Assembly: GCA_036783095.1 (NCBI GenBank)
Contig: DAIPXV010000001.1
Span: forward strand, 4,043 to 68,042
DNA: 64,000 nt
Source of the DNA: Candidatus Bipolaricaulota bacterium
GTDB lineage: Bacteria > Bipolaricaulota > Bipolaricaulia > RBG-16-55-9 > DRXL01
Direction of reading: 5' to 3'
In this document: piece by piece, positions 14,076 to 54,973 of the stretch
Position numbering within the stretch: position 1 is the stretch's first letter
How the letters are laid out: each line of letters begins with the position of its first letter
The notes under the pieces: generated by a model
Databases searched by the model: none
Seen by the model: only the letters and a program-made list of their open reading frames with translations
What the model was told of the DNA's origin: nothing
Made by a program: the position numbers and the translations under genes

Positions 14076-14606
14076 TCACTTCTCTCTTTGAGATTCTTCG
14101 TAGAGCCGATTTACAAACTCCAGCACGCGTCTCTGGTCCAGCTCATCCAAGAGTTCAACTTTTCTGCGGATGCGCTCAGGAAGCCCTGCTTCGGCTTCTT
14201 TGGCGACTTTCTCTAAGAGTGCTTTCTGAGCGAGCCGGTGCGCCTTCCAGTTGGCGTCGCGCTCCACGTAGTTCACTTGCCAGTTAGGGAGCTTCGCGAG
14301 CAATTCTTGGACTTGGCGATTGAGCGGCTCGAGGTGCGGCCGACGAATGCGATAGAGCCCGTTGACTTGATTTGCTAAAAGCTGGCTATCAGTGAAGAAG
14401 ATGACACGTTTGGGCGCGAGCGGGATAACAGCTTTAATCGCCTCAATGAGCGCGCGATATTCTGCGACGTTATTCGTCGTGCGCCCGATGTGCTCCGAGA
14501 TCTCTTGGATGACGTTCCCCTCAGCATCGGCGATGACGATTCCAATAGCGGCTTCGCCAGGGTTCCCCTGAGAGGCGCCGTCTACGTTCACAAAAAGTTT
14601 CCCCAT
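14076..14606 (-). CDS. rnhA: Ribonuclease HI-like (type-1 RNase H fold with C-terminal extension)
   Basis: MGKLFVNVDGASQGNPGEAAIG (DGAS.GNPG)...NNVAEYRALI...FFTDSQLL...ERDANWKAHRLA. The longer track ORF overlaps the tRNA and is an artefact. Confidence 0.7.
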   Translation of the reverse strand: MGKLFVNVDGASQGNPGEAAIGIVIADAEGNVIQEISEHIGRTTNNVAEYRALIEAIKAVIPLAPKRVIFFTDSQLLANQVNGLYRIRRPHLEPLNRQVQELLAKLPNWQVNYVERDANWKAHRLAQKALLEKVAKEAEAGLPERIRRKVELLDELDQRRVLEFVNRLYEESQREK

Positions 14607-14647
14607 AAACTGAAAACTCAGAACTGTGAACTCTCTAACTGTCTTTG

Positions 14648-14720
14648 TGGGCCCGGCAGGATTCGAACCTGCGACCAACCGGTTATGAGCCGGCCGCTCT
14701 GACCCCTGAGCTACGGGCCC
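14648..14720 (-). tRNA. tRNA with anticodon CAU (elongator Met or Ile-lysidine type), CCA not encoded
   Basis: Reverse complement GGGCCCGTAGCTCAGGGGTCAGAGCGGCCGGCTCATAACCGGTTGGTCGCAGGTTCGAATCCTGCCGGGCCCA. Anticodon loop cuCAUaa. Anticodon stem is not the GGG/CCC initiator type. Confidence 0.8.
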
Positions 14721-16288: not shown

Positions 16289-17548
16289 ATGATACAATTT
16301 TTAATAATTATGCGGAGCGATACACGAGCGCCGAAATTCGTACTATGTTGTGTCTTGCTCTTGAGCGTTATAGCTTGGGGCAATCCCGTTGTGAAATTCC
16401 AACCAGCGCAACGTATACAGACTGGGTCTGGAACAACAACTGTTGCTCTGGGGGACCTCAATCACGATGGCCTCTTAGATATCGTTACGGCGATTATTAT
16501 CGTCACTTATGAAGAGAAAGATCGTAAGACCCTGAACTTGGCTGCCGTTTGGGGAGGCCCAGGGGGGCAATTTCTCGCGCCGCAGCTCATTGAATTCAAT
16601 TCTATAAAACTAGACGATGATGTCAAGATCCCGCGCGGCAAGGTGCTTGCGATGGGCGACCTCAACGGCGATGGTCTCTTCGACGCTGTGCTGGCCTATC
16701 CCACAGGAGGGAACTTCTGGGTCTTTTGGGGGGACAGAGCTTCAGCGTTCCGCCCCGCCTCCAATCGCGATCTCCCTCGCAGCCTGCGCGACGTCAGCGC
16801 CGTCGCTGTCGCTGATTTTACTCATGATGGCCGCCCCGATATCGTCTGTACGAATCTTCAAGGGAATGTCTACGTCTTCGTCAATAATGGGACGGAGCAA
16901 GTAGATCGTTGGGCGATGCGCGAGACGTTTGTCGGCGGGAGCTTGCAATCCCTTGCTGTCAACGATCTCAATCGGGACGGCAAGGCCGATATAGTAGTGA
17001 GCAGCATCGGTCGAGCCGCCGTGCTGCTTGGCGATGGCACAGGGAGCTTTCGCATCGCGCAGCGCTTGTCCGCCGGGCTCTATTCAGGGGATTCGCCAGC
17101 GTGGATCGAGATTGCTGATATCAACAACGATACTTTTGGCGACTTAGTGACGGCCAACCCGGAGAGCGATCGTCTGCTTGTCTTTGTCGGAGATGGCGCA
17201 GGGCAACTTGAGGAGCCACGCGCCTGGGCTACGGGGTTCTTAGACCCGCGAGCCGTGGCTGTTGCTGACTTCAATGGGGACGGATGGCTTGATCTCGCAG
17301 CAGGGAACTCGTCGAGCAATCTCGTCACCGTCCATCTGAACGATGGCTCTGGGGGCTTCGGCTCAATAGTATTAAGTGACCCCCCGCGGGGGAAAGCTAT
17401 ACAGCCTAATAGAGCGATTACTGTCGCGGTGGGCTCACTGCCCGTTGCGCTCGCTGCTGGGGATCTCGACAGCGACAGCGATCTCGATCTCGTCGTCGCG
17501 AATCAGGGGGATGGTTCTGTCTCGGTCTTGATCAACGAACGCCGCTAG
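16289..17548 (+). CDS. Secreted FG-GAP/VCBS repeat (integrin-alpha-like propeller) protein
   Basis: Seven repeats of the D-x-N-x-DG-x-x-D type (GDLNHDGLLDIV, GDLNGDGLFDAV, ADFTHDGRPDIV, NDLNRDGKADIV, ADFNGDGWLDLA, GDLDSDSDLDLV). Confidence 0.7.
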   Translation: MIQFLIIMRSDTRAPKFVLCCVLLLSVIAWGNPVVKFQPAQRIQTGSGTTTVALGDLNHDGLLDIVTAIIIVTYEEKDRKTLNLAAVWGGPGGQFLAPQLIEFNSIKLDDDVKIPRGKVLAMGDLNGDGLFDAVLAYPTGGNFWVFWGDRASAFRPASNRDLPRSLRDVSAVAVADFTHDGRPDIVCTNLQGNVYVFVNNGTEQVDRWAMRETFVGGSLQSLAVNDLNRDGKADIVVSSIGRAAVLLGDGTGSFRIAQRLSAGLYSGDSPAWIEIADINNDTFGDLVTANPESDRLLVFVGDGAGQLEEPRAWATGFLDPRAVAVADFNGDGWLDLAAGNSSSNLVTVHLNDGSGGFGSIVLSDPPRGKAIQPNRAITVAVGSLPVALAAGDLDSDSDLDLVVANQGDGSVSVLINERR

Positions 17549-27678: not shown

Positions 27679-30600
27679 TTATTGTTGACAGGGGATCTGC
27701 GCCGGGCCCTTATTGATCCATTCGTTGATGAAGCCCTCAATGCGACTCTCGTCATAGAACGAGAGCTTATCTATTCGTCCCCAGGCCGTGAGCGCGATCT
27801 GTTTGGGCTCGAGCTTCCCGTACGGCGCGATGATCAACCGACAGTACTTTTCGGCGTGCTCGTTCTGCAAGCGCTTAAGAAGATTCTCTAATTGGGTCAG
27901 GGTCGTGTTATCGGTCTCTGGGCCGTACTGGATGAGCACGGCGCCGCCGCGCAACGCCCACACTTGGAGCTCTTCGGCGATCGGCTCTTTGTGCACGCCG
28001 AAGGCGATCTCGCCCTCTCGATACGGCCCTGAAGTGGGCGGCGTCGAAGTGTACGGCTCATGCTCTTGCTCTGGAGAGATCGCACGCGATTCTTGGAGAG
28101 CTACGGGCATTCCGGGCTTGTCGTCGCTCCACTTGCCCGTCACTTCGTAGAGCATCTGAGCGACTTCTGAGGCTCGATAGTTGGGGTTTTCGGCCTTGAG
28201 CTTTTCAAGCTGCTCGCGCATATCGGCGAGCTTTTGCTGCTCTTTGGCAATAAGAGCCAATTGATAGAGCGCCTCCAGGCCATCGTCGCCGAGTTTGCCC
28301 GTCGAGCCCACCAACGAGCGCTCGGCTTCTAAGATCTTCTCATAGAGATTCTTCTTTTGGTCTGGGGTTGTAGCCACAGCCAAGCCGGACTTATAGTGAT
28401 TCTTGGCTTGCTCGTACTCCGATCGGCCCGCAGCGACATCCCCAAGCCCAATATACGCATTGAGGGCTTGCTCTGGGGTCGGACCTTGCTCCAGGATCGC
28501 CGTGTAATGGCGCACGGCAGACTCGAAGATATGTTCTTTCTGATACTGTTTTGCGAGTTGGAAGCGCGTATCGAAGTCCTTGGGGTCAAGCTCGACGATG
28601 CGCTCGCCCAGCTGCTCGCGCAACTCGGCTGCCGCCGTGCGCTTGAACCCCTCTCGATAGTTCTTCAGGGCTTCGTCAGTCTGTCCCTGCTGGCGCCGGA
28701 CATCCCCAAGCGCTAAATAAGCTTCAGCTAGGTACGGCGAATCCTTGATCACTTGGCTGTACTGCTTCAGCGCTTCATCTAGATTGTTAAGCGCTTCGTA
28801 AGCCCGCCCCAGCTTCAACCGCACATTGGGGTTATTCTGGAGCTTGAGCGACTCTTTGTAGAGCTCGACAGCACGTTGAGGATCTCCCTTCTTCAGGGCG
28901 ATATCGGCGAGAGCCGTCACAAGTCGAGGATCGTCATAGCCCGTGCGGGCTTTCTCCTGCTCGCGCAGCTCCGTGTAGAGCGCTTCGGCTTTGTCCCACT
29001 CCTCTAGGCCCAAATACGCCTCGGCCATCTTCTGCTTCACGACGCGAATGGCGTCTTTATCTTTCGCGGGATCGAGATGCTCGAGGGCTTTCTGATAGTA
29101 TTCCAAGGCCAGCGCGTAGTTCTTGAGGGACATCATCAAGTGCCCATAGAGCCGGAGCGGGCCCGGATCAGCCGGAGCAAGCTCGGTGGCTCTCTTGGTC
29201 ATCTTGATGGAGTCTTGGATGCTCTGCTGGTCGCCCTCGGTGAAGAGGAAGAGCCCGTACTGATAGTACGCTTGGGGATTATCGGGATCGAGCGCAATCA
29301 GTTGATCATAGAAGCTGCGATCCCCTCCCGCGCCCTTAGCGGTCTCCAATAAGTGTTGCACGGCCTTCTGACGGTATTCTTTGATCTTCTGTTCAAGCTC
29401 TTTGAGCTTCGCTTCTTTGTTCTCGACGTTCTCTTGCTTTTCGAGCTCGGCCTTCTCTTGTTCAGCTTGGCGCAGCTTCACTTGATAGAGCCGGGCAATA
29501 TAGTAATCGAGATATTTGCCCAGCTCGTCGTCGGTGGGCAGCGAGCCCTCTTGCAAAAGCTTCTCGTACGCTGCAATAGCCTCGTCAATCTTTTCTTGTT
29601 GTTCGAGCTGATACGCGGCGATGAGGGGCAGCCGCAGCTCGATCTGGGCTGAGGCTTTGGCTTGCTTGAGCCAAGCGTCGAATCGCTCGACGCGCTGGCG
29701 CACCTTATAATCGCTCGCGATGGATTCCCTTACGGTGCTGAAGCTCTTGCGATCCTCAAGACGAACGAGCCAGAGCCCTTGGGCTGTCTGGATGAGATCG
29801 CTGATCTGCCCGACTTGGAGCTGGGCTAGGGCATCCTGAAGCTCCTTGGGCAGGTCCGTCAGGGTGAGATAGCCCATATCGCCGTTACGATCTTTGAACT
29901 CTGGATCTTGAGAATATTCCCTGACGATATCGGCGAAGTTTGCGCCTTCGGCTCTGAGTTTATCTTTGGCTTCCTGGAGGCGCTTGCGAGCCGCGATGAG
30001 CTCGTCTTCCGGGGCGTCGGGCGCAATGGGGATAAATATTCTGCTTAAGCGAACTCTTTCTAAGAAATTCCCTTGCTTGGCCGCTTCGAGCCATTGGGTC
30101 ATAAGGGCGTCTTCGCGTTCGCGCACCCAGTCGCGGCGTACGTCTGCTTGTGCTTGCTCAAACGTGCGCACGCGCTTGTCTTCGACTTTGATGAGATGGA
30201 ACCCGTAACGAGTGCGCACTGGCTTGCTCACCTTCCCAATATCCAGAGCGAACGCCGCATCCTCGAACTCCTTCACCATGACGCCCTTGCCAAACCATCC
30301 CAGATCGCCACCGTTCTCGGCGTTGCTCTTATCGTCAGAATATTTTTTCGCAAGCTCCGCGAAGTCCGCTCCCGAATCTAATTGCTTTTTAATCTCTTCG
30401 ATCTTCTTCTTGGCTTCGGCGACTTGCTCTTCGGGGGCGTTCTCGTCCACTTTGATTAAGATATGCCGCGCCTTGACTTCAGGGGTCGCGTATTTGTCTC
30501 GATTATTCTCAAAGTATGCTTGCAGCTCGGCGGTCGAAGGTTGCAGATACCCTAAGAGATCATTGACATAGCGCGTCTTGTTCTGCTCGATGAATTCTAT

Positions 30601-31197
30601 GAGCGCTTGATCAGTAACTTCGATGGGCCCCACAACGGCTTCCTCGAGAGCTTCTTCTTTGAGCTGCGCGGCCACTTGATCGCGGATCTGTCGCTGATAA
30701 GCGGGCAGAGAGCTGCCGCGCTCCTTGAGAATGCGCGCAAGCTCTTTTTCGTCAATGCCGTAGCGCTGGCGCAGCATCAGCAAGAAATTCTCATACTCTT
30801 GCTTGTAGCGCTCATCGAGTTTTTTCGCTGGGACGCTGATGCCGCGCCTACGGCTCTCTTGCTCTTTGATAGTCTTTTCGATGAGACGCTCGATCGCTTG
30901 GGCGCGCCATTGCAGCTGCCGATATGCCCCATCGGGTCCCTCGAGGGCCTTCTCGATCTCGGGGTTAAACTGACGCTGTTCGTTGAGAATCTCTTGATAG
31001 GCTTGCTCGTACTCGACCTTGCCGATCTTCTCCCCGTTGACGACGAGGACAACGTCTTCTTCTTTGGGGACATTACGCGCACCGGGGTTGAGCGCCACTG
31101 GCGAGAAGATCACCAGTGCCCCTAACACGAAGCTGATGACTACGGCCCAGATTACGTACTTTCCGTATTTCTCAACGAGCTTGCGGATCGTGTGCAT
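27679..31197 (-). CDS. Giant periplasmic chaperone: N-terminal TM anchor, PpiD/SurA-like, parvulin PPIase, then ~450 aa of TPR repeats and a C-terminal domain of unknown function
   Basis: TM VIWAVVISFVLGALVIF. Parvulin motif KARHILIKV...GGDLGWFGKGVMVKEFEDAAF...YGFHLIKVEDKR. Many TPR-like AxxYxxALxxxP units, then a unique ~170-aa tail. Confidence 0.7.
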   Translation of the reverse strand: MHTIRKLVEKYGKYVIWAVVISFVLGALVIFSPVALNPGARNVPKEEDVVLVVNGEKIGKVEYEQAYQEILNEQRQFNPEIEKALEGPDGAYRQLQWRAQAIERLIEKTIKEQESRRRGISVPAKKLDERYKQEYENFLLMLRQRYGIDEKELARILKERGSSLPAYQRQIRDQVAAQLKEEALEEAVVGPIEVTDQALIEFIEQNKTRYVNDLLGYLQPSTAELQAYFENNRDKYATPEVKARHILIKVDENAPEEQVAEAKKKIEEIKKQLDSGADFAELAKKYSDDKSNAENGGDLGWFGKGVMVKEFEDAAFALDIGKVSKPVRTRYGFHLIKVEDKRVRTFEQAQADVRRDWVREREDALMTQWLEAAKQGNFLERVRLSRIFIPIAPDAPEDELIAARKRLQEAKDKLRAEGANFADIVREYSQDPEFKDRNGDMGYLTLTDLPKELQDALAQLQVGQISDLIQTAQGLWLVRLEDRKSFSTVRESIASDYKVRQRVERFDAWLKQAKASAQIELRLPLIAAYQLEQQEKIDEAIAAYEKLLQEGSLPTDDELGKYLDYYIARLYQVKLRQAEQEKAELEKQENVENKEAKLKELEQKIKEYRQKAVQHLLETAKGAGGDRSFYDQLIALDPDNPQAYYQYGLFLFTEGDQQSIQDSIKMTKRATELAPADPGPLRLYGHLMMSLKNYALALEYYQKALEHLDPAKDKDAIRVVKQKMAEAYLGLEEWDKAEALYTELREQEKARTGYDDPRLVTALADIALKKGDPQRAVELYKESLKLQNNPNVRLKLGRAYEALNNLDEALKQYSQVIKDSPYLAEAYLALGDVRRQQGQTDEALKNYREGFKRTAAAELREQLGERIVELDPKDFDTRFQLAKQYQKEHIFESAVRHYTAILEQGPTPEQALNAYIGLGDVAAGRSEYEQAKNHYKSGLAVATTPDQKKNLYEKILEAERSLVGSTGKLGDDGLEALYQLALIAKEQQKLADMREQLEKLKAENPNYRASEVAQMLYEVTGKWSDDKPGMPVALQESRAISPEQEHEPYTSTPPTSGPYREGEIAFGVHKEPIAEELQVWALRGGAVLIQYGPETDNTTLTQLENLLKRLQNEHAEKYCRLIIAPYGKLEPKQIALTAWGRIDKLSFYDESRIEGFINEWINKGPAQIPCQQ

Positions 31198-31275
31198 CTC
31201 TGTTCACCTCAAAATAAAGAGAGATCTACTGATTTCCTCCAGCCCTCGGTATCACTGTATAATAAACCTTGAGGG

Positions 31276-31893
31276 GTGATCTGTCAAGCGATGCGCGCGA
31301 TTGCTTGTGGGCTTCTGATAGTGAGTCTCTTGAATGCTTGGGGCATCAGCCAGCCCAGAACTATAGTCGCCATAGACGCCGGACACGGCGGCAACGATAC
31401 CGGCGGCATCGGCGTAGACAATCTCTGTGAAAAAGAGATCGTGCTGAAGATCGCGCATCTGATCGCCCTGGAAGCCGTAAGCTTTCCTCATTTGAAAGTG
31501 ATCTTGACGCGCAGCGACGATCGCTCTCTGTCCCCTGCCGAGCGCATTGCTGCCGCCCAAGGGGCTCATTTCTATATCAGCCTCCATCTGGGTTTCTCCT
31601 ACGATCCGCGCGCACGGGGCATCACAGCGCTTGTGCCTACAAATGCCAAGAGCTCCTCGATAGCTCTCGCGGAAGCGCTTCGCGTCAGACTGATCGCGGT
31701 AACTCGCACACTCGATAGGGGCACGCACCAAGCTCCCTTGTGGCTGCGCCGGCTCCCCATCCCCGCTGTTCAACTCAACTTAGGCTTTCTCACCAACCCC
31801 GAAGAAGCGCGAAAGCTCGCGCAGTTAGCGTATCAGAGGCGCGTAGCGCGAGCGATCCTCGAGGGCATCAACGACTTCATTCGCTCGAAGTGA
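31276..31893 (+). CDS. N-acetylmuramoyl-L-alanine amidase (Amidase_3 / CwlD-AmiC type)
   Basis: VAIDAGHGGNDTGGIG...EKEIVLKIA...LTRSDDRSLSPAERIAAAQGAHFYISLHL. Confidence 0.7.
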   Translation: MICQAMRAIACGLLIVSLLNAWGISQPRTIVAIDAGHGGNDTGGIGVDNLCEKEIVLKIAHLIALEAVSFPHLKVILTRSDDRSLSPAERIAAAQGAHFYISLHLGFSYDPRARGITALVPTNAKSSSIALAEALRVRLIAVTRTLDRGTHQAPLWLRRLPIPAVQLNLGFLTNPEEARKLAQLAYQRRVARAILEGINDFIRSK

Positions 31894-32239
31894 CCCACAT
31901 CAGCCGTGCTAAATCCGCGCCATCGCCCTGACGCGGAGGCAGCTTTAACACTCGTGTGTAGCCCCCATCTCTTCCAGCAAACTTCGGCGCCACTTCCGCA
32001 AAGAGCTTATCTGTGAGATCAGGATCTTGGAGCACAGCAAATGCTAAGCGCCGCGCTTGTAAATCATTCCGCTTGGCCCAGGTGATCAGGCGCTCGGCCA
32101 AGCGCGCACTCTCCTTGGCACGCGCCACGGTCGTGTCTACTTTGCCGTGCTCGATGAGCTCCTTCACAATATTAGCTAAGAGTGCCTTCCGATGGGCAGG
32201 CGCTCGATTGAGCTTCCGAAATTTCTTGCGATGCCACAT
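31877..32239 (-). CDS. rplQ: 50S ribosomal protein L17
   Basis: MWHRKKFRKLNRAPAHRKALLANI...RRLAFAVLQD...GGYTRVLKL. Confidence 0.9.
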   Translation of the reverse strand: MWHRKKFRKLNRAPAHRKALLANIVKELIEHGKVDTTVARAKESARLAERLITWAKRNDLQARRLAFAVLQDPDLTDKLFAEVAPKFAGRDGGYTRVLKLPPRQGDGADLARLMWVTSSE

Positions 32240-35713: not shown

Positions 35714-36343
35714 TCACTCGAGCGCCTGTTGGGCCGCGCGATAGACCGACTCAATATCGCCGCTGGCGTCAATCTCCCGAAGCACATTACGCTTTTTATA
35801 GAATTCGAGCATGGGGCCGATCTCGTGAGCATATTGAACATCAATGCGCCTTTGGATCACTTCGGGAGTATCATCGGAGCGTTGTACTAGGGCGACCCCG
35901 CAGATATCGCACAGGGTATCGGTTTGGGGCGGGCTTGAGAGGAGATTATACACGCGCCCACAGCGAGGGCAGACGCGGCGCGCGCTCAACCGCCGAATGA
36001 TCTCCTCCCGATCGAGCCGAAAGTGCAGGGCGCGCTCGACTGTGGTCACGCTCTCTAAGATCTCTGCTTGGGCGAGATTGCGAGGGAAGCCATCGAGCAC
36101 AAAGCCTGGGGCCCCCTGCACTCTCTTGCGGATCATCTCCGCGACCAACTGATCTGGGACAAGCTCGCCCCGGTCCATAAATCGCTGGGCTTGCATGCCC
36201 AACTCCGTGCGATTCTGGACCTCGCTGCGCAAGAGATCCCCTGTGGAGATATGCGGGACGCCAAGCCACGCAGCCAAGCGTGTGGCTTGAGTTCCCTTGC
36301 CCGATCCTGGAGGCCCTAACAGCACAATCCGTCGCGCAGTCAT
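35714..36343 (-). CDS. adk: Adenylate kinase (zinc-binding lid)
   Basis: LLGPPGSGKGTQA, CPRCGRVYN...CDICG. Confidence 0.9.
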   Translation of the reverse strand: MTARRIVLLGPPGSGKGTQATRLAAWLGVPHISTGDLLRSEVQNRTELGMQAQRFMDRGELVPDQLVAEMIRKRVQGAPGFVLDGFPRNLAQAEILESVTTVERALHFRLDREEIIRRLSARRVCPRCGRVYNLLSSPPQTDTLCDICGVALVQRSDDTPEVIQRRIDVQYAHEIGPMLEFYKKRNVLREIDASGDIESVYRAAQQALE

Positions 36344-36346
36344 AGC

Positions 36347-38026
36347 TTATATACGCCGCCCTAGGCCCCCCTTGGCGATCAAGCTCTCATAGCGCCGCTC
36401 GACCAAGTGCGCCTCGATCTGCTTGATCGTATCTACACCTACGCCCACCACAATGAGCAGCGACGTGCCCCCTAAGAAGAAGGTCGTCAGCCCACTGATA
36501 TTCGTTATGATCATAGGGAGCAGGGCAATGATGATCAAAAAGAGGGCGCCGATGAAGAGCAATCTGCTCTGGACGGACTCAATGAAATCAGCGGTAGGCT
36601 TGCCGGGGCGAATCCCGGGCACAAACCCTCCCCACTTGCGCAAATTCTCCGCCAAGTCCTTGGGATTAAAGACGATCGCGCTGTAGAAATACGTGAAGAA
36701 GAAGATCAAGATTGCAACTAAGATCATATAGAGCGTATGCCCGCGTGACAGATCGATCGCTAGCCAGTTCAAGAAATCCCCCATGACGTTCATCCAATCG
36801 CGAGCGGAGGCCCGGACAAACGTGATGCCGCGTACTACCGCTGTTTGGCCTACCCCGTTCAACGCGATCAAGTTGTCGGGAGTCTCCCCAATAGAGATCT
36901 TCTTGGGATTTTCAGGAGCTCTATCGGGTTCGACAGGGATGATGAGATGGCTGCTTTGGGTCTGGGCCGAGCCAGGCTTCTGGCGATTGAGCGCTTCCGC
37001 GATAGCTTGAGCGACCTGCTCGCTCGTCTGTTTTGGTGCCAGGGAGATCTGCACGAGCTGGCCATCTACTCTCACGAAGAGATCTCCTTCCTGGCTCTCC
37101 CCGGAGATCTCAAGGGCGATGCGACGCTCCGCGACCATATTAGCAATGACGTTGTTGTTCTCTAGGAATTGAAAGATGGTTTGCGGGATAGCCAGCAGGG
37201 CTATGGCAAAGATAATGGGGATGACGCCTCCCTGATTGACTTGCAAGGGCAGGAACGTGCTGTGCCCGCCATAGACGCGCCCCTTGACCATACGTTTGGC
37301 GTACTGAATATCAATGCGCCGCGCCCCAAGCTGGACCATGACCACGCCCGCCGTGACCAGAACGTATATAGCTAAGAGCAACGGCAACCACAGGGCATTC
37401 ATGGGGTTGGGATTGCTGGTCACTTCGCCCCAGATCGTCGCAAAGTATCTGGGATAGTCTGCCAAGATTCCGATCATGATCAGCATGGAGATCCCGCGGC
37501 CGATCCCGTTCTCCGTGAGGCGCTCGCCCAACCACATCAAGAACATCGTTCCCGTGGTGAGCGCCACGATGGAGATGAACATAAATCCCGGCAAACTCTG
37601 ATTGGGGAGGACAAGATTCTGATTATAGATAAGATAGCTTGTGCCGGCGGCTTGGATGAACGCCAGCCCTACGGTCGCATAGCGCGTGATCTTATTAATC
37701 ACGCGCCGCCCTTCTTCCCCTTGCTCTTGAAGCTCTTTGAGTTTCGGGATAACAGCGACGAGCAAGCTCAAGATAATCGAAGCGTTGATATACGGGATGA
37801 CGCCCAGGGCGAAGATCGAGAAGCGCTCGAGCGCCCCTCCTGTAAAGGCGCTCAAGAACTGCCCGAGCTGACCGAGTTGCTCAAGGAAGAGCTTAATCTG
37901 CTCGGGGTTGACCCCTGGCACAGGGATCCATGCCCCCAACCGAAAGACAATGATCACTCCAAGGGTGAAGAGAATCCGCTTGCGGACCTCGGGGATGCGA
38001 AATGCCTCAAATAAGCCTTCAGTCAT
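36347..38026 (-). CDS. secY: Preprotein translocase SecY, with a ~115-aa insertion in the periplasmic loop between TM7 and TM8
   Basis: Canonical SecY blocks LGVIPYINASIILSLL, GGVIPIIFAIALLAIPQTIFQFL and NPKDLAENLRKWGGFVPGIRPGKPTADFI. The extra segment NMVAERRIALEISGES...DLSRGHT has no E. coli SecY counterpart (559 aa vs ~440). Confidence 0.85.
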   Translation of the reverse strand: MTEGLFEAFRIPEVRKRILFTLGVIIVFRLGAWIPVPGVNPEQIKLFLEQLGQLGQFLSAFTGGALERFSIFALGVIPYINASIILSLLVAVIPKLKELQEQGEEGRRVINKITRYATVGLAFIQAAGTSYLIYNQNLVLPNQSLPGFMFISIVALTTGTMFLMWLGERLTENGIGRGISMLIMIGILADYPRYFATIWGEVTSNPNPMNALWLPLLLAIYVLVTAGVVMVQLGARRIDIQYAKRMVKGRVYGGHSTFLPLQVNQGGVIPIIFAIALLAIPQTIFQFLENNNVIANMVAERRIALEISGESQEGDLFVRVDGQLVQISLAPKQTSEQVAQAIAEALNRQKPGSAQTQSSHLIIPVEPDRAPENPKKISIGETPDNLIALNGVGQTAVVRGITFVRASARDWMNVMGDFLNWLAIDLSRGHTLYMILVAILIFFFTYFYSAIVFNPKDLAENLRKWGGFVPGIRPGKPTADFIESVQSRLLFIGALFLIIIALLPMIITNISGLTTFFLGGTSLLIVVGVGVDTIKQIEAHLVERRYESLIAKGGLGRRI

Positions 38027-38029
38027 AGC

Positions 38030-38539
38030 TCACTTCCCTGACGCCTTCGGCGCTTTCTTGGCTTTCTCTTCGGGTTGAGGCTGCTCCGGCTCGGGGAGTA
38101 AGGCGATTGCTTGCCCTCCCGCGGCGAGGATCTTCTCCTTGGCGCTCTCACTAAACTTATGCGCCTTCACAATGAATTTCTTTGAGAGCGGGCCGTCACC
38201 GAGGATCTTCACGCCGTTGCGGTATTTCTTAATGAGCCCATGCTCCTTGAGGGCCTTGGGGGTGATCTCTGCCCCGTCGGGGAAGACCTCGTTGAGCTGG
38301 CCGACGTTCACGAACGCGTAACTCTTTCGCAAGGGGTTTTTAAATCCGCGCTTGGGCACGCGCTTCCATAGCGGAGTCTGACCACCCTCGAAGGCTGGGG
38401 GCATCCGATATCCTGAGCGTGCCGTCTGCCCCTTCCCTCCGCGGGTCGAGTACGTCCCATGCCCTGAGGCGTTGCCCCGCCCGACGCGCTTGAGCTTCTT
38501 GACACTCCCTGGGGTGGGCCGCAGATCACTGAGCTTCAT
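38030..38539 (-). CDS. rplO: 50S ribosomal protein L15 (K/P/E-rich C-terminal extension)
   Basis: [37 protein letters not shown]. Confidence 0.9.
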
Positions 38540-50695: not shown

Positions 50696-51922
50696 ATGTG
50701 GATCTTCCTCAAGCTGGCCGCGCGCAATCTCTTGCGCAACAAGCGCCGCAGCGCCATCACGTTCATCGCCATCGGGCTGGGGCTCGTACTCGTGCTCTTC
50801 TTCTACGGCTTCATCCAAGGCGTAGACAAACAGTTCACGGATAATTTTATCAAAGCTCAGACGGGACACATCCAGATGCACGCGCGCGGCTACCAGGAGA
50901 AAGCCCGGCTCATGCCCGTAGATATCGCTATCAAAGACTATCAGAGCGTCGTCCGAAAGCTCGCAGAATTCCCCAGCGTGAAGGGCATCTACCCAAGATT
51001 GCGCTTTCCCGTCATTATCAGCACCGGTAGCGAGAGTTTAGGAGTGCTTGGGCTGGGCTTTGATCCGCAAGCTGAGCGCGACGGCGTCATCGCCACAAAG
51101 ATCGTCCAGGGGGAGTATCTCTCAGAGAAGCCCGGCTACGCCCTCATCGGAGTGCAGCTTGCGAAAGACTTAAAAGTCGGCGTCGGCGATCTCTTGACGC
51201 TCGTAGCTACGACTCCCAAGGGCGCATTGAACTCTATTGACGTCGAGATCAAGGGCATCTTTGCGACGGGGTACAGCCAGATAGATAACTCTGTTTTGGC
51301 GTTGGCCTTGCCTGATGCTCAGAAGCTCCTGCGCATGGCAGGGCAAGTCACCGAAATTACCCTGATGCTCAACGACGCCGATCAAGCCGACTCTGTTGCC
51401 CAGATCATCCGAGAGAGATTCAGCGACGATGGCTTGGAAGTCCAGACATGGAAAGAGCTTGGCGCAGCGATCTTCGAATTGCTAAACGCACGGCGGCAAC
51501 TCATCGCGATCATCTCGCTTGTTGTGATCTTGATCGCGACCCTAGGGATCGTGAACACGATGCTGATGTCGGTCTTTGAGCGGGTGCGGGAGATCGGGAC
51601 CCTGATGGCTTTGGGGATGACGCCGGGGGAGATTCGGCTGCTCTTTCTGCTAGAAAGCGCGATCTTGGGGGCAGCAGGCGGATTGATGGGAGTGGGAATC
51701 GGCGGCGCTCTGTTAAAATACTTTTCGGTCGCAGGGATCACGATCACTCAAGCATCGCAGTTCGTCAATGTCCCGATAGGGACGACGTTCTATGCTGAGT
51801 TCTCTTGGAAGACATTAGGGATGTTCTTTGTGTTAGCGCAAGCTGTAGCCGTGCTCGCGGCGCTCTACCCTGCATATATTGCGTCCAAACAAGAGCCGGT
51901 GCAGGCGCTGCGCCATGTGTAG
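50696..51922 (+). CDS. FtsX/MacB/LolE-family ABC permease with a large periplasmic domain
   Basis: N-terminal LKLAARNLLRNKRRSAITFIAIGLGL. Periplasmic domain between TM1 and TM2. Three C-terminal TMs (the FtsX-like arrangement). Confidence 0.75.
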   Translation: MWIFLKLAARNLLRNKRRSAITFIAIGLGLVLVLFFYGFIQGVDKQFTDNFIKAQTGHIQMHARGYQEKARLMPVDIAIKDYQSVVRKLAEFPSVKGIYPRLRFPVIISTGSESLGVLGLGFDPQAERDGVIATKIVQGEYLSEKPGYALIGVQLAKDLKVGVGDLLTLVATTPKGALNSIDVEIKGIFATGYSQIDNSVLALALPDAQKLLRMAGQVTEITLMLNDADQADSVAQIIRERFSDDGLEVQTWKELGAAIFELLNARRQLIAIISLVVILIATLGIVNTMLMSVFERVREIGTLMALGMTPGEIRLLFLLESAILGAAGGLMGVGIGGALLKYFSVAGITITQASQFVNVPIGTTFYAEFSWKTLGMFFVLAQAVAVLAALYPAYIASKQEPVQALRHV

Positions 51923-51963
51923 AATCACGGAACGCGCAGAAATGGGCACGGAAGACACGGAGA
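51920..51963 (+). promoter_or_regulatory. TAGAAT box followed by three CACGGAR repeats in the leader of the LolA-like gene
   Basis: TAGAAT CACGGAAcgcgcagaaatggg CACGGAAga CACGGAGag, then the RBS AAAGGAGG. Same architecture as the rpmF leader. Confidence 0.45.
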
Positions 51964-51991
51964 GTGGTAAGTAAGACAAAGGAGGCGTTCT

Positions 51992-52747
51992 ATGAACGCG
52001 ATGCGCATCGTTGGGATCGTTCTCATAGTGGGTCTTATGGTCGTCGGTCTGGGGTGGGCACAGCAGCCCGCTGCTGAAGAGATTCTCAAAAAATCCGTCG
52101 AGTCGAGCTACCCGGAGCAGTTCGTCTCGCTCAATAAATTGGAGAACTTCGAGAAGGGCCAACTGAGCAGCGCGTATGAGCTGCGCGTCTTCAAGAAGGG
52201 CAGCGACAAAGCCCTTTTAGAAGTGCTCGCGCCTGAGGACGCCAAGGGGCAGAAGATCCTGAGGGTCGGCGATGAAGTCGTCATTCTCTTCCCGGAAAAC
52301 TGTCGAATCGTCCCGCTGAGCGCGCGGCAGAACGTCCTCGGCACTAGCTTCACCATCGCGGATGTCTTGAGAGTGGACTTGGTGAAAGATTATAACGCCA
52401 AGCTCTTGGGCGCGGAAAGAGTCCAAGACCGTCCAGCGTACAAGCTCGAGCTGACGGCAAAAGATGAGACCGTGCCCTTCGCGCGGATTCTCTACTGGGC
52501 AGACGCAGAGAACTTTTTGCCCCTGCAGAGCGAATTCTACACCGAGACGGGAAAGCTCTTGCGGCGCGCCCTCTACGAAGAGCGCAAGCAGCTCGCCGGC
52601 GCGCTGCGCCCCAGTAAGATCACTATCGAAAACGCGCTCGAGGCCGGCACCAAGACCGTCATGACCATCCTCGAGATGGAGAGCAAAGATCTTCCAGACT
52701 CGATGTTCACCAAAGAAGCTCTTTTAGAGTCATGCAAGAAGCCGTGA
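51992..52747 (+). CDS. LolA-like / outer-membrane lipoprotein-sorting-family periplasmic protein
   Basis: Signal peptide. ~250-aa beta-rich protein between the FtsX-like permease and the ABC ATPase. Context-based call, weak motif support. Confidence 0.45.
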   Translation: MNAMRIVGIVLIVGLMVVGLGWAQQPAAEEILKKSVESSYPEQFVSLNKLENFEKGQLSSAYELRVFKKGSDKALLEVLAPEDAKGQKILRVGDEVVILFPENCRIVPLSARQNVLGTSFTIADVLRVDLVKDYNAKLLGAERVQDRPAYKLELTAKDETVPFARILYWADAENFLPLQSEFYTETGKLLRRALYEERKQLAGALRPSKITIENALEAGTKTVMTILEMESKDLPDSMFTKEALLESCKKP

Positions 52748-53424
52748 GCGAGATCGTCGTCCGCGTTGAGAACATCACGAAAGAGTACGCGATGGGGCGC
52801 ACGGTCGTCAAGGCCCTGCGCGGCGTTTCGTTGGAGATTGCTCGTGGAGAGTTCTTGTGCATTGCCGGCCCGTCGGGATCGGGCAAGACAACACTGTTAA
52901 ATCTCATCGGGTGTCTGGACAAGCCCACATCGGGACGCATTCTCATCGAAGGGCAAGATGTCTCCACGCTTTCGCCCAAGGAGCTGGCGTGGGTGCGGCG
53001 GCGACGCTTGGGATTTGTCTTCCAGACGTTCAATCTCGTGCCGGTGCTCACGGCGTATGAGAATATTGAGCTGCCGTTGCTTTTATTGGGCGTAGGGGCA
53101 GCGGAGCGCCGCCGGCGCGTCTATGCGCTTTTAGAAGCTTTAGGGATCAGCGAGCTAGCCCATCATCGCCCCGACGAGATGTCTGGAGGACAGCAGCAGA
53201 GAGTCTCGATCGCGCGGGCGCTCATCACCGAGCCTGCTTTAGTCTTGGCCGACGAGCCCACGGCCAACTTGGACTCGGAGACGGGCAGAGCGATCATCGA
53301 GCTGATGCACGAGCTCAACAGAAAGCGCGGGACGACCTTCGTCTTTTCGACTCACGACCCCAAAGTCATGGAGCGCGCGTCGCGGTTAATACATATTCGC
53401 GACGGGCAGATTGATAACGTCTGA
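52732..53424 (+). CDS. ABC ATPase (LolD/MacB-type)
   Basis: GPSGSGKTTLLN (Walker A), Q-loop, MSGGQQQRVSIARAL, LVLADEPTANLD, FSTHD (H-loop). Confidence 0.85.
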   Translation: MQEAVSEIVVRVENITKEYAMGRTVVKALRGVSLEIARGEFLCIAGPSGSGKTTLLNLIGCLDKPTSGRILIEGQDVSTLSPKELAWVRRRRLGFVFQTFNLVPVLTAYENIELPLLLLGVGAAERRRRVYALLEALGISELAHHRPDEMSGGQQQRVSIARALITEPALVLADEPTANLDSETGRAIIELMHELNRKRGTTFVFSTHDPKVMERASRLIHIRDGQIDNV

Positions 53425-53554
53425 TAATCTGTGATCTTTGCTTGGTTTTTTTATGACCAATGTCATTGTCGAGCGCCCGCCCTCGCCGTAAGTTTTTGCT
53501 ATACCCCCTGCCGCGTGCTTCACTGGCGTGGCTGGAGAGAGAGGAGGTAAAGTC

Positions 53555-54973
53555 ATGTCGCGATTTTTACTCTGCGTAGTCATCGCAGCTTTGATCGCTC
53601 TTGGGAGCCATACGAATGTTAGTCTCGCCGGTCCATATTGGGAGAGGCTACCCACCGATAGCGAAATCCAACAAGCCGTAAATCAGTTCACAGTGCCCAA
53701 CAGATCCATTGTGGACCTACGGGTCTTCAAATATCACGACCCAACAGAATCAGATTATCCTATCACGGCGAATGGCGTTGGATTGGTCTACAGGGTGCCC
53801 AACCCAGATTATGACCCTGCTAATCCGGGTCCAGATCTTGAATGTGGTCAAGCGACTCTGTATTGGTGGCCTGACCGCGGCGGTTGGGTTTTTGTCGATA
53901 CTAGTGGCGGCCGTCGGCTGTGCTTTTCTTCCACTGATACGCTCGATGTTCTTGTGAACCGGTATCTTGGCACGCGCTTGCGTCTTGGTTGGATCGGTGA
54001 ATCACCGCCTGGTGAGAACCGGCCCCCGACAGTATCCTTGAGTTACTCGCCTCAAAACCCGACCCCAAACGATACGATCTATTTCACGGCCGTGGCTTCC
54101 GACCCAGATGGGGATGACCTCACCTACAGATGGTTTCTCAATGGTGTAGAGCAACCCGCCACCGCGCCGCATGTGCAGTTGGCCAATCCGCCTGAGGGTA
54201 CCTACACTATAAGAGTGGTCGTCTCCGACGGCAAGGGCGGCATGGCCGAAGACAGCCTCGAGTTCACCGTACAAGCCGCACGCCCACGCTATGTCATTAT
54301 GAAAGGGACAGGAGAATTCCAAGGGGAGGAGCCGCTCGCCTTTGTCGAAAAGATTGAAGTGGATGGCAAGATCACTGAGAGCAGAACTCCTCTCTATAAG
54401 GATGCCTACGTCAAGACCGGCCCTGGGGTGGAGATCGTCATTAGGTTCGCCAGCGGCGTGGTGGTAAGAGTGAAAGAGAACACTCATTATGAGGTCGAAG
54501 GGGTGAAGTTTTCGGGAACCCCCCAGGCTGTGATTTACACGAGACTCATAGAGGGTCTCATGAACTTTTGGTTTAAAGGGCGGGAGCTAGAGCAGAAGTT
54601 CGAGGTCGAGGCCAACAGGATAGTCGTTGGCATCAAAGGGACGGAAGGGACTATAAAGCTAATCTCAGGCATCACGACCGTCACAGTGACCGAGGGCGAA
54701 GTCGAGGTGAAGGATAAGGTAACGGGTGCCGTTTCAACTGTTCGTGCCGGAGAGACAGCTACTTTTGGCGGAACACCCCCGCCGAGCGGCGAGAAGACCA
54801 TCGAGCAAGCAATTGATGCCGACGGGGACGGGATCATTAACGATCTCGAAATGCTCCAGGCGCTCCAATATTGGATCAAACAACAGATCGTCCCCGGCAC
54901 CAACAAGACGATTGACGATCTGACGATGCTTTCGCTCCTGCAAAAATGGATCAAAGGGATGCCAGTGCGATAG
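53555..54973 (+). CDS. Secreted protein with a PKD domain and a C-terminal dockerin/EF-hand-like Ca-binding repeat pair
   Basis: Signal peptide MSRFLLCVVIAALIALG. PKD signature IYFTAVASDPDGDDLTYRWFLNG. Canonical 12-residue Ca loop DADGDGIINDLE plus a degenerate second repeat TIDDLTMLSLLQKWI. RBS GAGAGGAGG. Confidence 0.65.
   Translation: MSRFLLCVVIAALIALGSHTNVSLAGPYWERLPTDSEIQQAVNQFTVPNRSIVDLRVFKYHDPTESDYPITANGVGLVYRVPNPDYDPANPGPDLECGQATLYWWPDRGGWVFVDTSGGRRLCFSSTDTLDVLVNRYLGTRLRLGWIGESPPGENRPPTVSLSYSPQNPTPNDTIYFTAVASDPDGDDLTYRWFLNGVEQPATAPHVQLANPPEGTYTIRVVVSDGKGGMAEDSLEFTVQAARPRYVIMKGTGEFQGEEPLAFVEKIEVDGKITESRTPLYKDAYVKTGPGVEIVIRFASGVVVRVKENTHYEVEGVKFSGTPQAVIYTRLIEGLMNFWFKGRELEQKFEVEANRIVVGIKGTEGTIKLISGITTVTVTEGEVEVKDKVTGAVSTVRAGETATFGGTPPPSGEKTIEQAIDADGDGIINDLEMLQALQYWIKQQIVPGTNKTIDDLTMLSLLQKWIKGMPVR

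Follow-up and report, generated by a model that had tools for sequence, protein, structure and literature searches.

The secY gene and its product

The locus described here lies in a 64,000-nucleotide stretch of the genome of a Candidatus Bipolaricaulota bacterium (the whole of this stretch is called the window below). It contains secY, the gene for the channel subunit of the general protein translocon, and the encoded SecY carries an additional folded domain in the periplasmic loop between transmembrane helices (TM) 7 and 8. Few membrane proteins are as strongly conserved as SecY, whose periplasmic face normally carries very little. The Bipolaricaulota were formerly known as Acetothermia or OP1. 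In the open-access literature we found neither a described SecY insertion nor an account of SecY in Bipolaricaulota or Acetothermia that covers this feature.

The gene is flanked by rplO (38030..38539) on one side and adk (35714..36343) on the other, and the neighbours were confirmed as those encoding L15, S5, Adk and Map. The order rplO-secY-adk-map, as in the spc operon with rpsE nearby, is also kept in relatives. The 559-amino acid (aa) product matches the Pfam family SecY (PF00344) with an E value of 3.9e-102 (342 bits, cutoff 32.2), the match being split in two stretches, and the NCBIfam SecY equivalog TIGR00967 with 374.7 bits (cutoff 253.6). No family besides SecY was detected by Pfam in the 559-aa protein. 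An identity as accessory SecY2 was considered and rejected, as the scores were below the cutoffs of both models (NF009082, 171.7 versus 353; TIGR02920, 152.5 versus 249.6). Since the protein scores above the SecY cutoff and below the SecY2 cutoffs and its gene has the context of the spc operon, it is, judged by profile scores and gene order, a housekeeping, operon-encoded SecY of the single-copy type.

All canonical SecY blocks are present, in agreement with the earlier note on this DNA. The helix pattern of an AlphaFold2 (AF2) model, hydropathy and superposition revealed the core of ten TM helices, the plug in loop P1 and the cytoplasmic loops C4 and C5, and the full-length model superimposes on SecY of Thermus thermophilus (5AWW_Y) with a TM-score of 0.84 (target-normalised). 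The core of ten helices, the plug region, the cytoplasmic loops and the place in the operon thus correspond to canonical SecY as known from Thermotoga maritima (3DIN) and T. thermophilus (5AWW). The ratio of nonsynonymous to synonymous substitutions (dN/dS) of the core, 0.03-0.11, also argues for a functional SecY encoded within these 64 kb of genome.

Position and boundaries of the insert

The following features of the gene, all on the minus strand, define the insert and its surroundings:

36347..38026, minus, secY coding sequence (559 aa plus stop), from the open reading frame (ORF) call and the Pfam and NCBIfam SecY matches
37157..37225, minus, TM7, the lateral-gate helix directly N-terminal of the insert (aa 268-290), from the AF2 helix, a hydropathy peak at 270-280 and the alignment with solved SecYs
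36821..37141, minus, inserted segment relative to the nearest insert-less SecYs (aa ~296-402, ~106 aa), from alignment A1
36803..37126, minus, folded domain (aa 301-408, ~108 aa), from the A4 profile match (E 2e-40) and the AF2 model
36902..36940, minus, variable Pro-rich surface loop within the domain (aa 363-375, PVEPDRAPENPKK), from alignments A1 and A2 and low values of the predicted local distance difference test (pLDDT)
36746..36796, minus, ordinary periplasmic helix before TM8 (aa 411-427), an AF2 helix that aligns with all insert-less SecYs and, from residue 295, with SecY of G. thermodenitrificans
36671..36736, minus, TM8 (aa 431-452), from the AF2 helix, a hydropathy peak at 435-446 and the alignment with solved SecYs

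The alignment with solved SecYs spans aa 5-297 and 429-555 of the protein and leaves approximately 130 residues without a counterpart. Residue 298 of T. maritima SecY (3DIN) pairs with residue 297 of the query and residue 302 with residue 429, so that only a few residues of the solved structures (298-302 in T. maritima) occupy the site where the SecY described here has a folded domain of ~108 aa in loop P4. The earlier note had placed an insertion of ~115 residues in the TM7-TM8 periplasmic loop, at 36745..37159; these positions correspond to aa 290-428, and the peptide quoted for them was found there exactly. An alignment of 22 SecYs with and without the insert (A1) confirmed that the insertion is real and sharpened its boundaries. 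Its size is ~106-108 aa, and the last ~20 aa of the segment proposed earlier are normal SecY. This C-terminal part (DWMNVMGDFLNWLAIDLSRGHT, aa 408-430) is the ordinary stretch before TM8 and lies outside the insert; DW(M/L)NV..DFLNWLA.DLSRGH, which follows the insert, aligns with every SecY in A1.

The apparent length of the insert depends on the reference. The nearest insert-less SecYs (P0044-P0049) have 453 aa, and against typical SecYs of 430-444 aa the extra segment measures 115-129 aa. A figure of ~115 aa is correct only in the latter comparison, because the sister group already has an extension of 10-13 aa. The loop segment comprises 139-145 residues in the insert-bearing clade, compared with 38 in its sister group and 17-30 elsewhere among the relatives. 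The extension of the sister group P0044-P0049, for example TYNENNPA, is its own and occupies the same site (A1 columns 301-430). These length differences, and those of the Pro-rich loop described below, suggest that loop P4 of SecY is a hot spot for changes in length.

If the helices are counted from the cytoplasmic N-terminus, the insert falls in a periplasmic loop, P4, whose location is the same in all SecYs, and hydropathy analysis showed no membrane-like hydrophobic segment in aa 296-410. Bipolaricaulota are diderm, with a toga-like envelope and an S-layer, and a cultured strain has its S-layer on the toga-like outer membrane (PMC6092417; bioRxiv 10.1101/2025.11.21.689855). Because the envelope is diderm, and LolA-like and MacB-like genes are present in the window, the loop faces a periplasm.

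Fold of the inserted domain

Structure prediction of the segment yielded a confident domain (aa 302-408). In the AF2 model, which was built on a 13-sequence alignment of the segment, the domain body has pLDDT values of 85-91 and consists, in this order, of three strands (302-309, 314-320 and 323-329), one helix (335-349) and six short strands (355-357, 360-364, 377-380, 386-389, 395-398 and 401-408); the full-length model agrees. The lowest averages of 10-residue blocks in the domain body, ~68-73, are those of the Pro-rich loop, whose length differs by 3-5 residues among the 554-, 556- and 559-aa forms of the protein. The insert is thus predicted to be a hydrophilic, compact, autonomously folding module, mostly of beta structure with one helix. 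An earlier description as a small soluble alpha/beta domain holds as far as solubility and folding are concerned (pLDDT 85-91, no hydrophobic segment), but the module is mainly beta with a single helix and not a classic alpha/beta domain.

Neither Pfam (E<=10) nor the sequences of the PDB gave any match to the insert alone. With Foldseek, phage tail sheath proteins matched the domain at E values of ~2e-3 and TM-scores of ~0.46-0.51, and its structural neighbours are the outer, surface-exposed domains of phage tail sheath, flagellin and FliD. The identities to D2/D3 of flagellin, D2-D3 of FliD and the outer domains of phage tail sheath, baseplate and nozzle proteins are 10-16%, with large root-mean-square deviations. 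The SecY insert has no match to Flagellin_IN (PF07196), and its free homologues described below reach only 9.7-12.7 bits (E 0.15-1.3) against a threshold of 22.7. A distant kinship with flagellar IN or phage tail outer domains is plausible at most.

Distribution, origin and selection

SecYs with the insert form 42 clusters at 90% identity, with lengths of 554-560 aa, and stem from JGI, ENA, NCBI and Logan assemblies, on contigs of up to 1.79 Mb. Their source names are 'Candidatus Bipolaricaulota bacterium' and 'bacterium HR07'. Near-identical insert-bearing loci (L001-L004) occur in metagenome-assembled genomes titled 'uncultured Thermotogae', 'Candidatus Fraserbacteria' and 'Candidatus Bipolaricaulota'; the taxonomy given by the submitters is inconsistent. 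In a neighbour-joining tree calculated from core columns, 18 of 18 insert-bearing sequences were monophyletic, without any insert-less member, and their sister P0044 has no insert. This pattern of a monophyletic group with an insert-less sister indicates a single gain: one ancestor in a sub-clade of the Bipolaricaulota gained, in frame, a domain of ~108 aa in loop P4. The insert is conserved within one sub-lineage, and the nearest relatives of this clade lack it. A known lineage-wide loop of the same length had been named as the finding that would speak against an insertion; the segment is clade-wide in this sub-lineage, but no description of it was found in the literature mentioned above.

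Within the clade, identity to the query is 56-93% for the insert and 85-100% for the two core halves. We determined dN/dS by the method of Nei and Gojobori on 11 coding sequences; many pairs have dS >1, and the values of these pairs are indicative only. For the insert the ratio was 0.13-0.16 in unsaturated pairs (dS 0.35-0.39), as opposed to 0.04-0.07 for the core, and 0.06-0.52 overall. These ratios indicate that the domain is under purifying selection, with a constraint approximately 2-4 times weaker than that on the channel core. In all 42 clusters it is kept whole, apart from changes of 3-5 residues in one surface loop.

That the insert arose by chimeric assembly, as a protein-splicing element or through insertion of mobile DNA can practically be dismissed. 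The only point that would suggest it is the unusual length of the protein (559 versus ~440 aa). Against it stand the presence of the insert in 42 clusters from independent assemblies, its in-frame state and the purifying selection on it. The region contains no tandem repeats, and the direct and inverted repeats found in it are short, at chance level and do not flank the insert; target-site duplications are absent. The composition is host-like (GC 0.58 in the insert, 0.54 in the remainder of secY). As the earlier note had recognized, the segment is not intein-like: the Pfam search returned no Hint or intein family, and inspection of the junctions, ...VIANMVAERR and ...FVRASARDW, showed none of the residues needed for splicing (Cys/Ser/Thr; His-Asn followed by a nucleophile). 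Its caveat about an assembly artefact is likewise settled by the independent assemblies and the lack of duplicated repeats. Recurrence, reading frame, selection and the absence of repeats and of the Hint family together led us to reject all these explanations.

Free homologues of the domain in IPTL-CTERM proteins

A HMMER search with the insert profile against 1.84 billion representative proteins gave 10 matches only, none of which is a SecY. The best matches were P0121 (E 1.2e-16), P0122 (1.4e-10) and P0123 (2.2e-10). Seven of the 10 contain IPTL-CTERM (PF18203/TIGR04174) above the Pfam gathering score; P0128 and P0130 match it with scores under this threshold, and P0129 (an IQ-motif repeat protein) and the lower match P0126 resemble low-complexity chance matches. 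BLASTP aligned the insert to P0123 (163 aa) with 35% identity (E 6e-12). In an alignment of SecY and free copies (A4), the match runs through the entire domain, including its first and last strands. The two kinds of copy are 25-42% identical to each other and share the motifs V.IEISG..Q.G.LF..VD, ALN.QQ.G.A, I.IGE and G(L/I)(T/V)F. A word-indexed search with the family profile returned free proteins only, and a scan of GTDB genomes with the insert profile returned four SecY loci and no free copies, with degenerate patterns that were tuned to the SecY copies.

The free domain occurs in three architectures. Proteins of ~160 aa (e.g. P0123, P0131-P0138) are composed of a signal peptide, one domain, the IPTL motif, a membrane helix and an Arg cluster. 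Two domain copies are present in a 261-aa protein, and large multidomain surface proteins of ~950-1150 aa combine the domain with VWA, CARDB or Ig-like domains. Two tandem copies were seen in P0121 (L012). Large IPTL-CTERM proteins with the domain among VWA, Ig-like or CARDB domains are encoded on L009 (2375-5716) and also on L010 and L011, and include P0122 and P0124. The large protein of L009 is flanked by two further small IPTL-CTERM genes; the signal peptide or the C-terminal anchor that these small genes encode is almost the same as in the small free-domain proteins.

On independent contigs, the small free-domain genes adjoin an exosortase gene or lie within 3 kb of one, and the exosortases score 92-94 bits against a cutoff of 86 for XrtH. 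The conserved neighbourhood consists of RarA, a Crp-type regulator, the small IPTL-CTERM protein and XrtH, followed by small proteins without Pfam family or with a weak XrtH_assoc match. It was found at these positions:

L005, 6001-12373, RarA-Crp-IPTL-XrtH neighbourhood
L013, 4001-5959, the same neighbourhood
L018, 319-1559, the same neighbourhood
L025, 1693-2985, the same neighbourhood

In the IPTL protein of this neighbourhood the insert domain is clear in L005 and L013, weak in L025 (E 6e-6) and undetected in L018, L020 and L022. RarA on one of the free-domain contigs shares 87-88% identity with proteins named Bipolaricaulota or Acetothermia; going by this marker, the hosts of the free-domain proteins are Bipolaricaulota as well.

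Profile and pairwise matches thus indicate that the SecY insert is homologous to a domain which is otherwise found only in Bipolaricaulota IPTL-CTERM proteins with a signal peptide. The resemblance extends over the whole length of the domain. In the IPTL-CTERM proteins, however, it is free, secreted and sorted, whereas the copy in SecY lacks a sorting signal and is built into a subunit of the channel. That free homologues occur only in proteins with a signal peptide and IPTL-CTERM supports an extracytoplasmic site for the SecY insert too. From sequence comparison, these copies make up a previously unnamed, XrtH-linked family of extracytoplasmic domains, found in these searches only on Bipolaricaulota-type contigs. 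SecY itself was considered as an IPTL-CTERM/XrtH substrate and rejected, with no IPTL-like motif in the window and a Pfam match to SecY only.

In a neighbour-joining tree, SecY copies and free copies were reciprocally monophyletic, with a median internal identity of 62% in each group. Reciprocal monophyly, similar internal diversity and the cross-identity of 25-42% suggest that the split between them is old. Most likely, SecY captured the domain from the surface-protein family. Because the architectures outside SecY are varied, this is the more economical direction, and the reverse is less likely.

Of the three JGI samples with the SecY insert, two also contained free-domain genes, and both kinds of gene occur in the FWWL/FWWM assemblies as well. 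The shared assembly GCA_900175155.1 (FWWL01) resembles a metagenome assembly and not a single-genome bin, since its sibling FWWM01 has contig numbers >10,000 and two RarA variants. Among NCBI assemblies, the free locus is present in GCA_041641035.1 and GCA_023512665.1 and the SecY insert in GCA_025060395.1 and GCA_037441155.1, with no overlap. A tblastx comparison of the free-domain loci with the window showed no genes in common.

A possible interaction platform at the translocon exit

With moderate confidence we favour the reading that the insert is a captured surface-protein domain in loop P4 of SecY, most likely acting as an interaction platform at the exit of the translocon. As it contains no membrane segment, it would leave the ten-helix core of SecY intact. 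Tied to the outer end of TM7, the folded module would be exposed on the periplasmic side, next to the channel exit and the lateral gate, where it might serve protein-protein interactions; this last step we propose with low confidence. Putative partners are a chaperone of the PpiD/YfgM type, SecDF or exported proteins with the paralogous domain. An effect on the translocation mechanism itself seems less likely, again with low confidence.

The proposed interaction surface draws on precedents by analogy only. Lumenal loop 7 of Sec61-alpha is enlarged compared with bacteria and has been implicated in gating and in BiP docking (PMC3897919, PMC8147068). It occupies the same topological place as the SecY insert, between TM7 and TM8 on the non-cytoplasmic side, which is a positional analogy without indication of homology. 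It is, moreover, described as an enlarged lumenal loop (PMC3897919), whereas the SecY insert would be an autonomous captured domain. Folding or hand-over modules at the SecYEG exit are known from the PpiD-YfgM pair of E. coli (PMC9643414) and from the 'dome' of PrsA-like proteins in Mycoplasma pneumoniae (bioRxiv 10.1101/2025.04.25.650208). These are separate subunits with parvulin and tetratricopeptide repeat (TPR) domains, whereas the add-on of SecY is covalent and its fold is not of a chaperone type.

Several findings weigh against the platform reading. The mean pLDDT of the full-length model is only 71.7, and the orientation of the domain towards the channel is not fixed by the model. The insert evolves approximately 2-4 times faster than the core. 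Positions conserved across SecY and free copies are mostly hydrophobic or glycine, a pattern which points to maintenance of the fold and not to a shared binding site. The tree of the domain gives no direction of transfer. An insert-bearing SecY and a free-domain/XrtH locus were sought in one genome and were not placed together; only samples and assemblies are shared. Finally, the 64-kb window contains neither a free copy of the domain nor an IPTL-like motif.

Some of these points would equally fit a tolerated passenger, that is, a domain fixed in a permissive loop without a specific role and selected only for its ability to fold without disturbing the essential channel. The faster evolution of the insert, the structural (hydrophobic or glycine) nature of the positions shared with the free copies, the length variation of the Pro-rich loop inside the clade and the separate 10-13-aa extension of the sister clade, which shows that the loop tolerates length change, are all compatible with it. 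However, the dN/dS of 0.13-0.16 persists over divergences at which synonymous sites are saturated, and the domain is retained in full in 42 of 42 clusters if the loop changes of 3-5 residues are disregarded. Furthermore, the polar residues T356, S358, S359, K375 and R405 are invariant among the SecY copies and not among the free copies. We therefore consider a passenger possible but rather unlikely. The insertion point directly after the lateral-gate helix TM7 raises the question of whether a domain tied to the end of TM7 and to the pre-TM8 helix alters the dynamics of lateral gate or plug, for instance by stabilizing the closed channel, and the equivalent lumenal loop 7 of Sec61 does influence gating and import (PMC3897919, PMC8147068). 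Such gate modulation is improbable, as neither structure nor sequence gives evidence of contacts to the plug or TM2b and the core residues of SecY are unchanged compared with insert-less relatives.

A more specific proposal would make the SecY domain a dedicated receptor for its free, XrtH-sorted IPTL-CTERM paralogues as they emerge, or for a layer built of them. It is attractive in that the insert has no homologues besides XrtH-linked IPTL-CTERM proteins from its own phylum, that Methylomirabilis has an IPTL-CTERM protein as its S-layer protein (PMC8671808) and that the cultured Bipolaricaulota strain carries an S-layer on its toga-like outer membrane. Nevertheless, we regard it as quite improbable: besides the unproven co-occurrence of insert-bearing SecY and free-domain gene in one genome, the XrtH-adjacent IPTL proteins of some contigs lack the domain or match it weakly, and no evidence of self-association of the domain was found. 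Finally, the domain might mask the periplasmic face of SecY from toxins or phages that exploit the translocon. Toxins of contact-dependent inhibition enter E. coli via SecY, involving a TM7 residue, and PpiD/YfgM (PMC7858069), but nothing specific in the window or the lineage points to such a shield and selection on the domain is purifying, not diversifying, which makes this very unlikely.

Whatever its role, the insert shows that the TM7-adjacent periplasmic site of the essential SecY tolerates a whole domain. Under the platform reading, accessory functions of the translocon could evolve by domain capture, besides the addition of subunits, and the insert-bearing SecY would be a testable case of how exported proteins are handed over on leaving the channel in a diderm that branches deeply and has a toga-like envelope. 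In structural work, the domain might provide a fiducial mark or an affinity site where SecY faces the periplasm. If SecY did act as a receptor for the IPTL-CTERM paralogues, the general translocon would be physically coupled to exosortase processing or surface-layer assembly, and a housekeeping SecY would have a built-in hand-over module, specific for a substrate class, on its outer face.

Neighbouring genes and envelope context

Downstream of the operon, the window encodes a large PpiD-like protein:

27679..31197, minus, membrane-anchored PpiD-like protein (1172 aa) with SurA_N, two parvulin (rotamase) domains, a long TPR region and a C-terminal DUF3105
31877..32239, minus, rplQ (L17)

The PpiD-like gene is located approximately 5.1 kb downstream of secY, and the same distance was found in two insert-bearing relatives (L001, L002). 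In the insert-less sister (L026/L027) it is not at this place, and other genes follow rplQ. The earlier note had suggested that the insert could dock chaperones such as this PpiD-like protein; the synteny is a weak hint in that direction. YfgM is a TPR protein (PMC9643414), and the domain set of the 1172-aa protein resembles a covalent fusion of the E. coli pair PpiD-YfgM. Between rplQ and the PpiD-like gene, on the opposite strand, lies a gene for an N-acetylmuramoyl-L-alanine amidase (Amidase_3, 31276..31893, plus; E 4e-35). It is overlapped by an ORF of 173 aa (31252..31773, minus) which matches no Pfam family and probably does not represent a gene.

A MacB/FtsX-type permease, a LolA-like protein and an ABC ATPase are encoded in a row at 50696..53424 (plus); this arrangement resembles a Lol-like set for lipoprotein sorting and fits a diderm envelope. 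Other genes, none of them linked to the SecY insert, encode an RVT_3/RNase H-like protein (14076..14678, minus), an FG-GAP repeat protein (16289..17548, plus) and a protein with PKD and FecR domains (53528..54973, plus).

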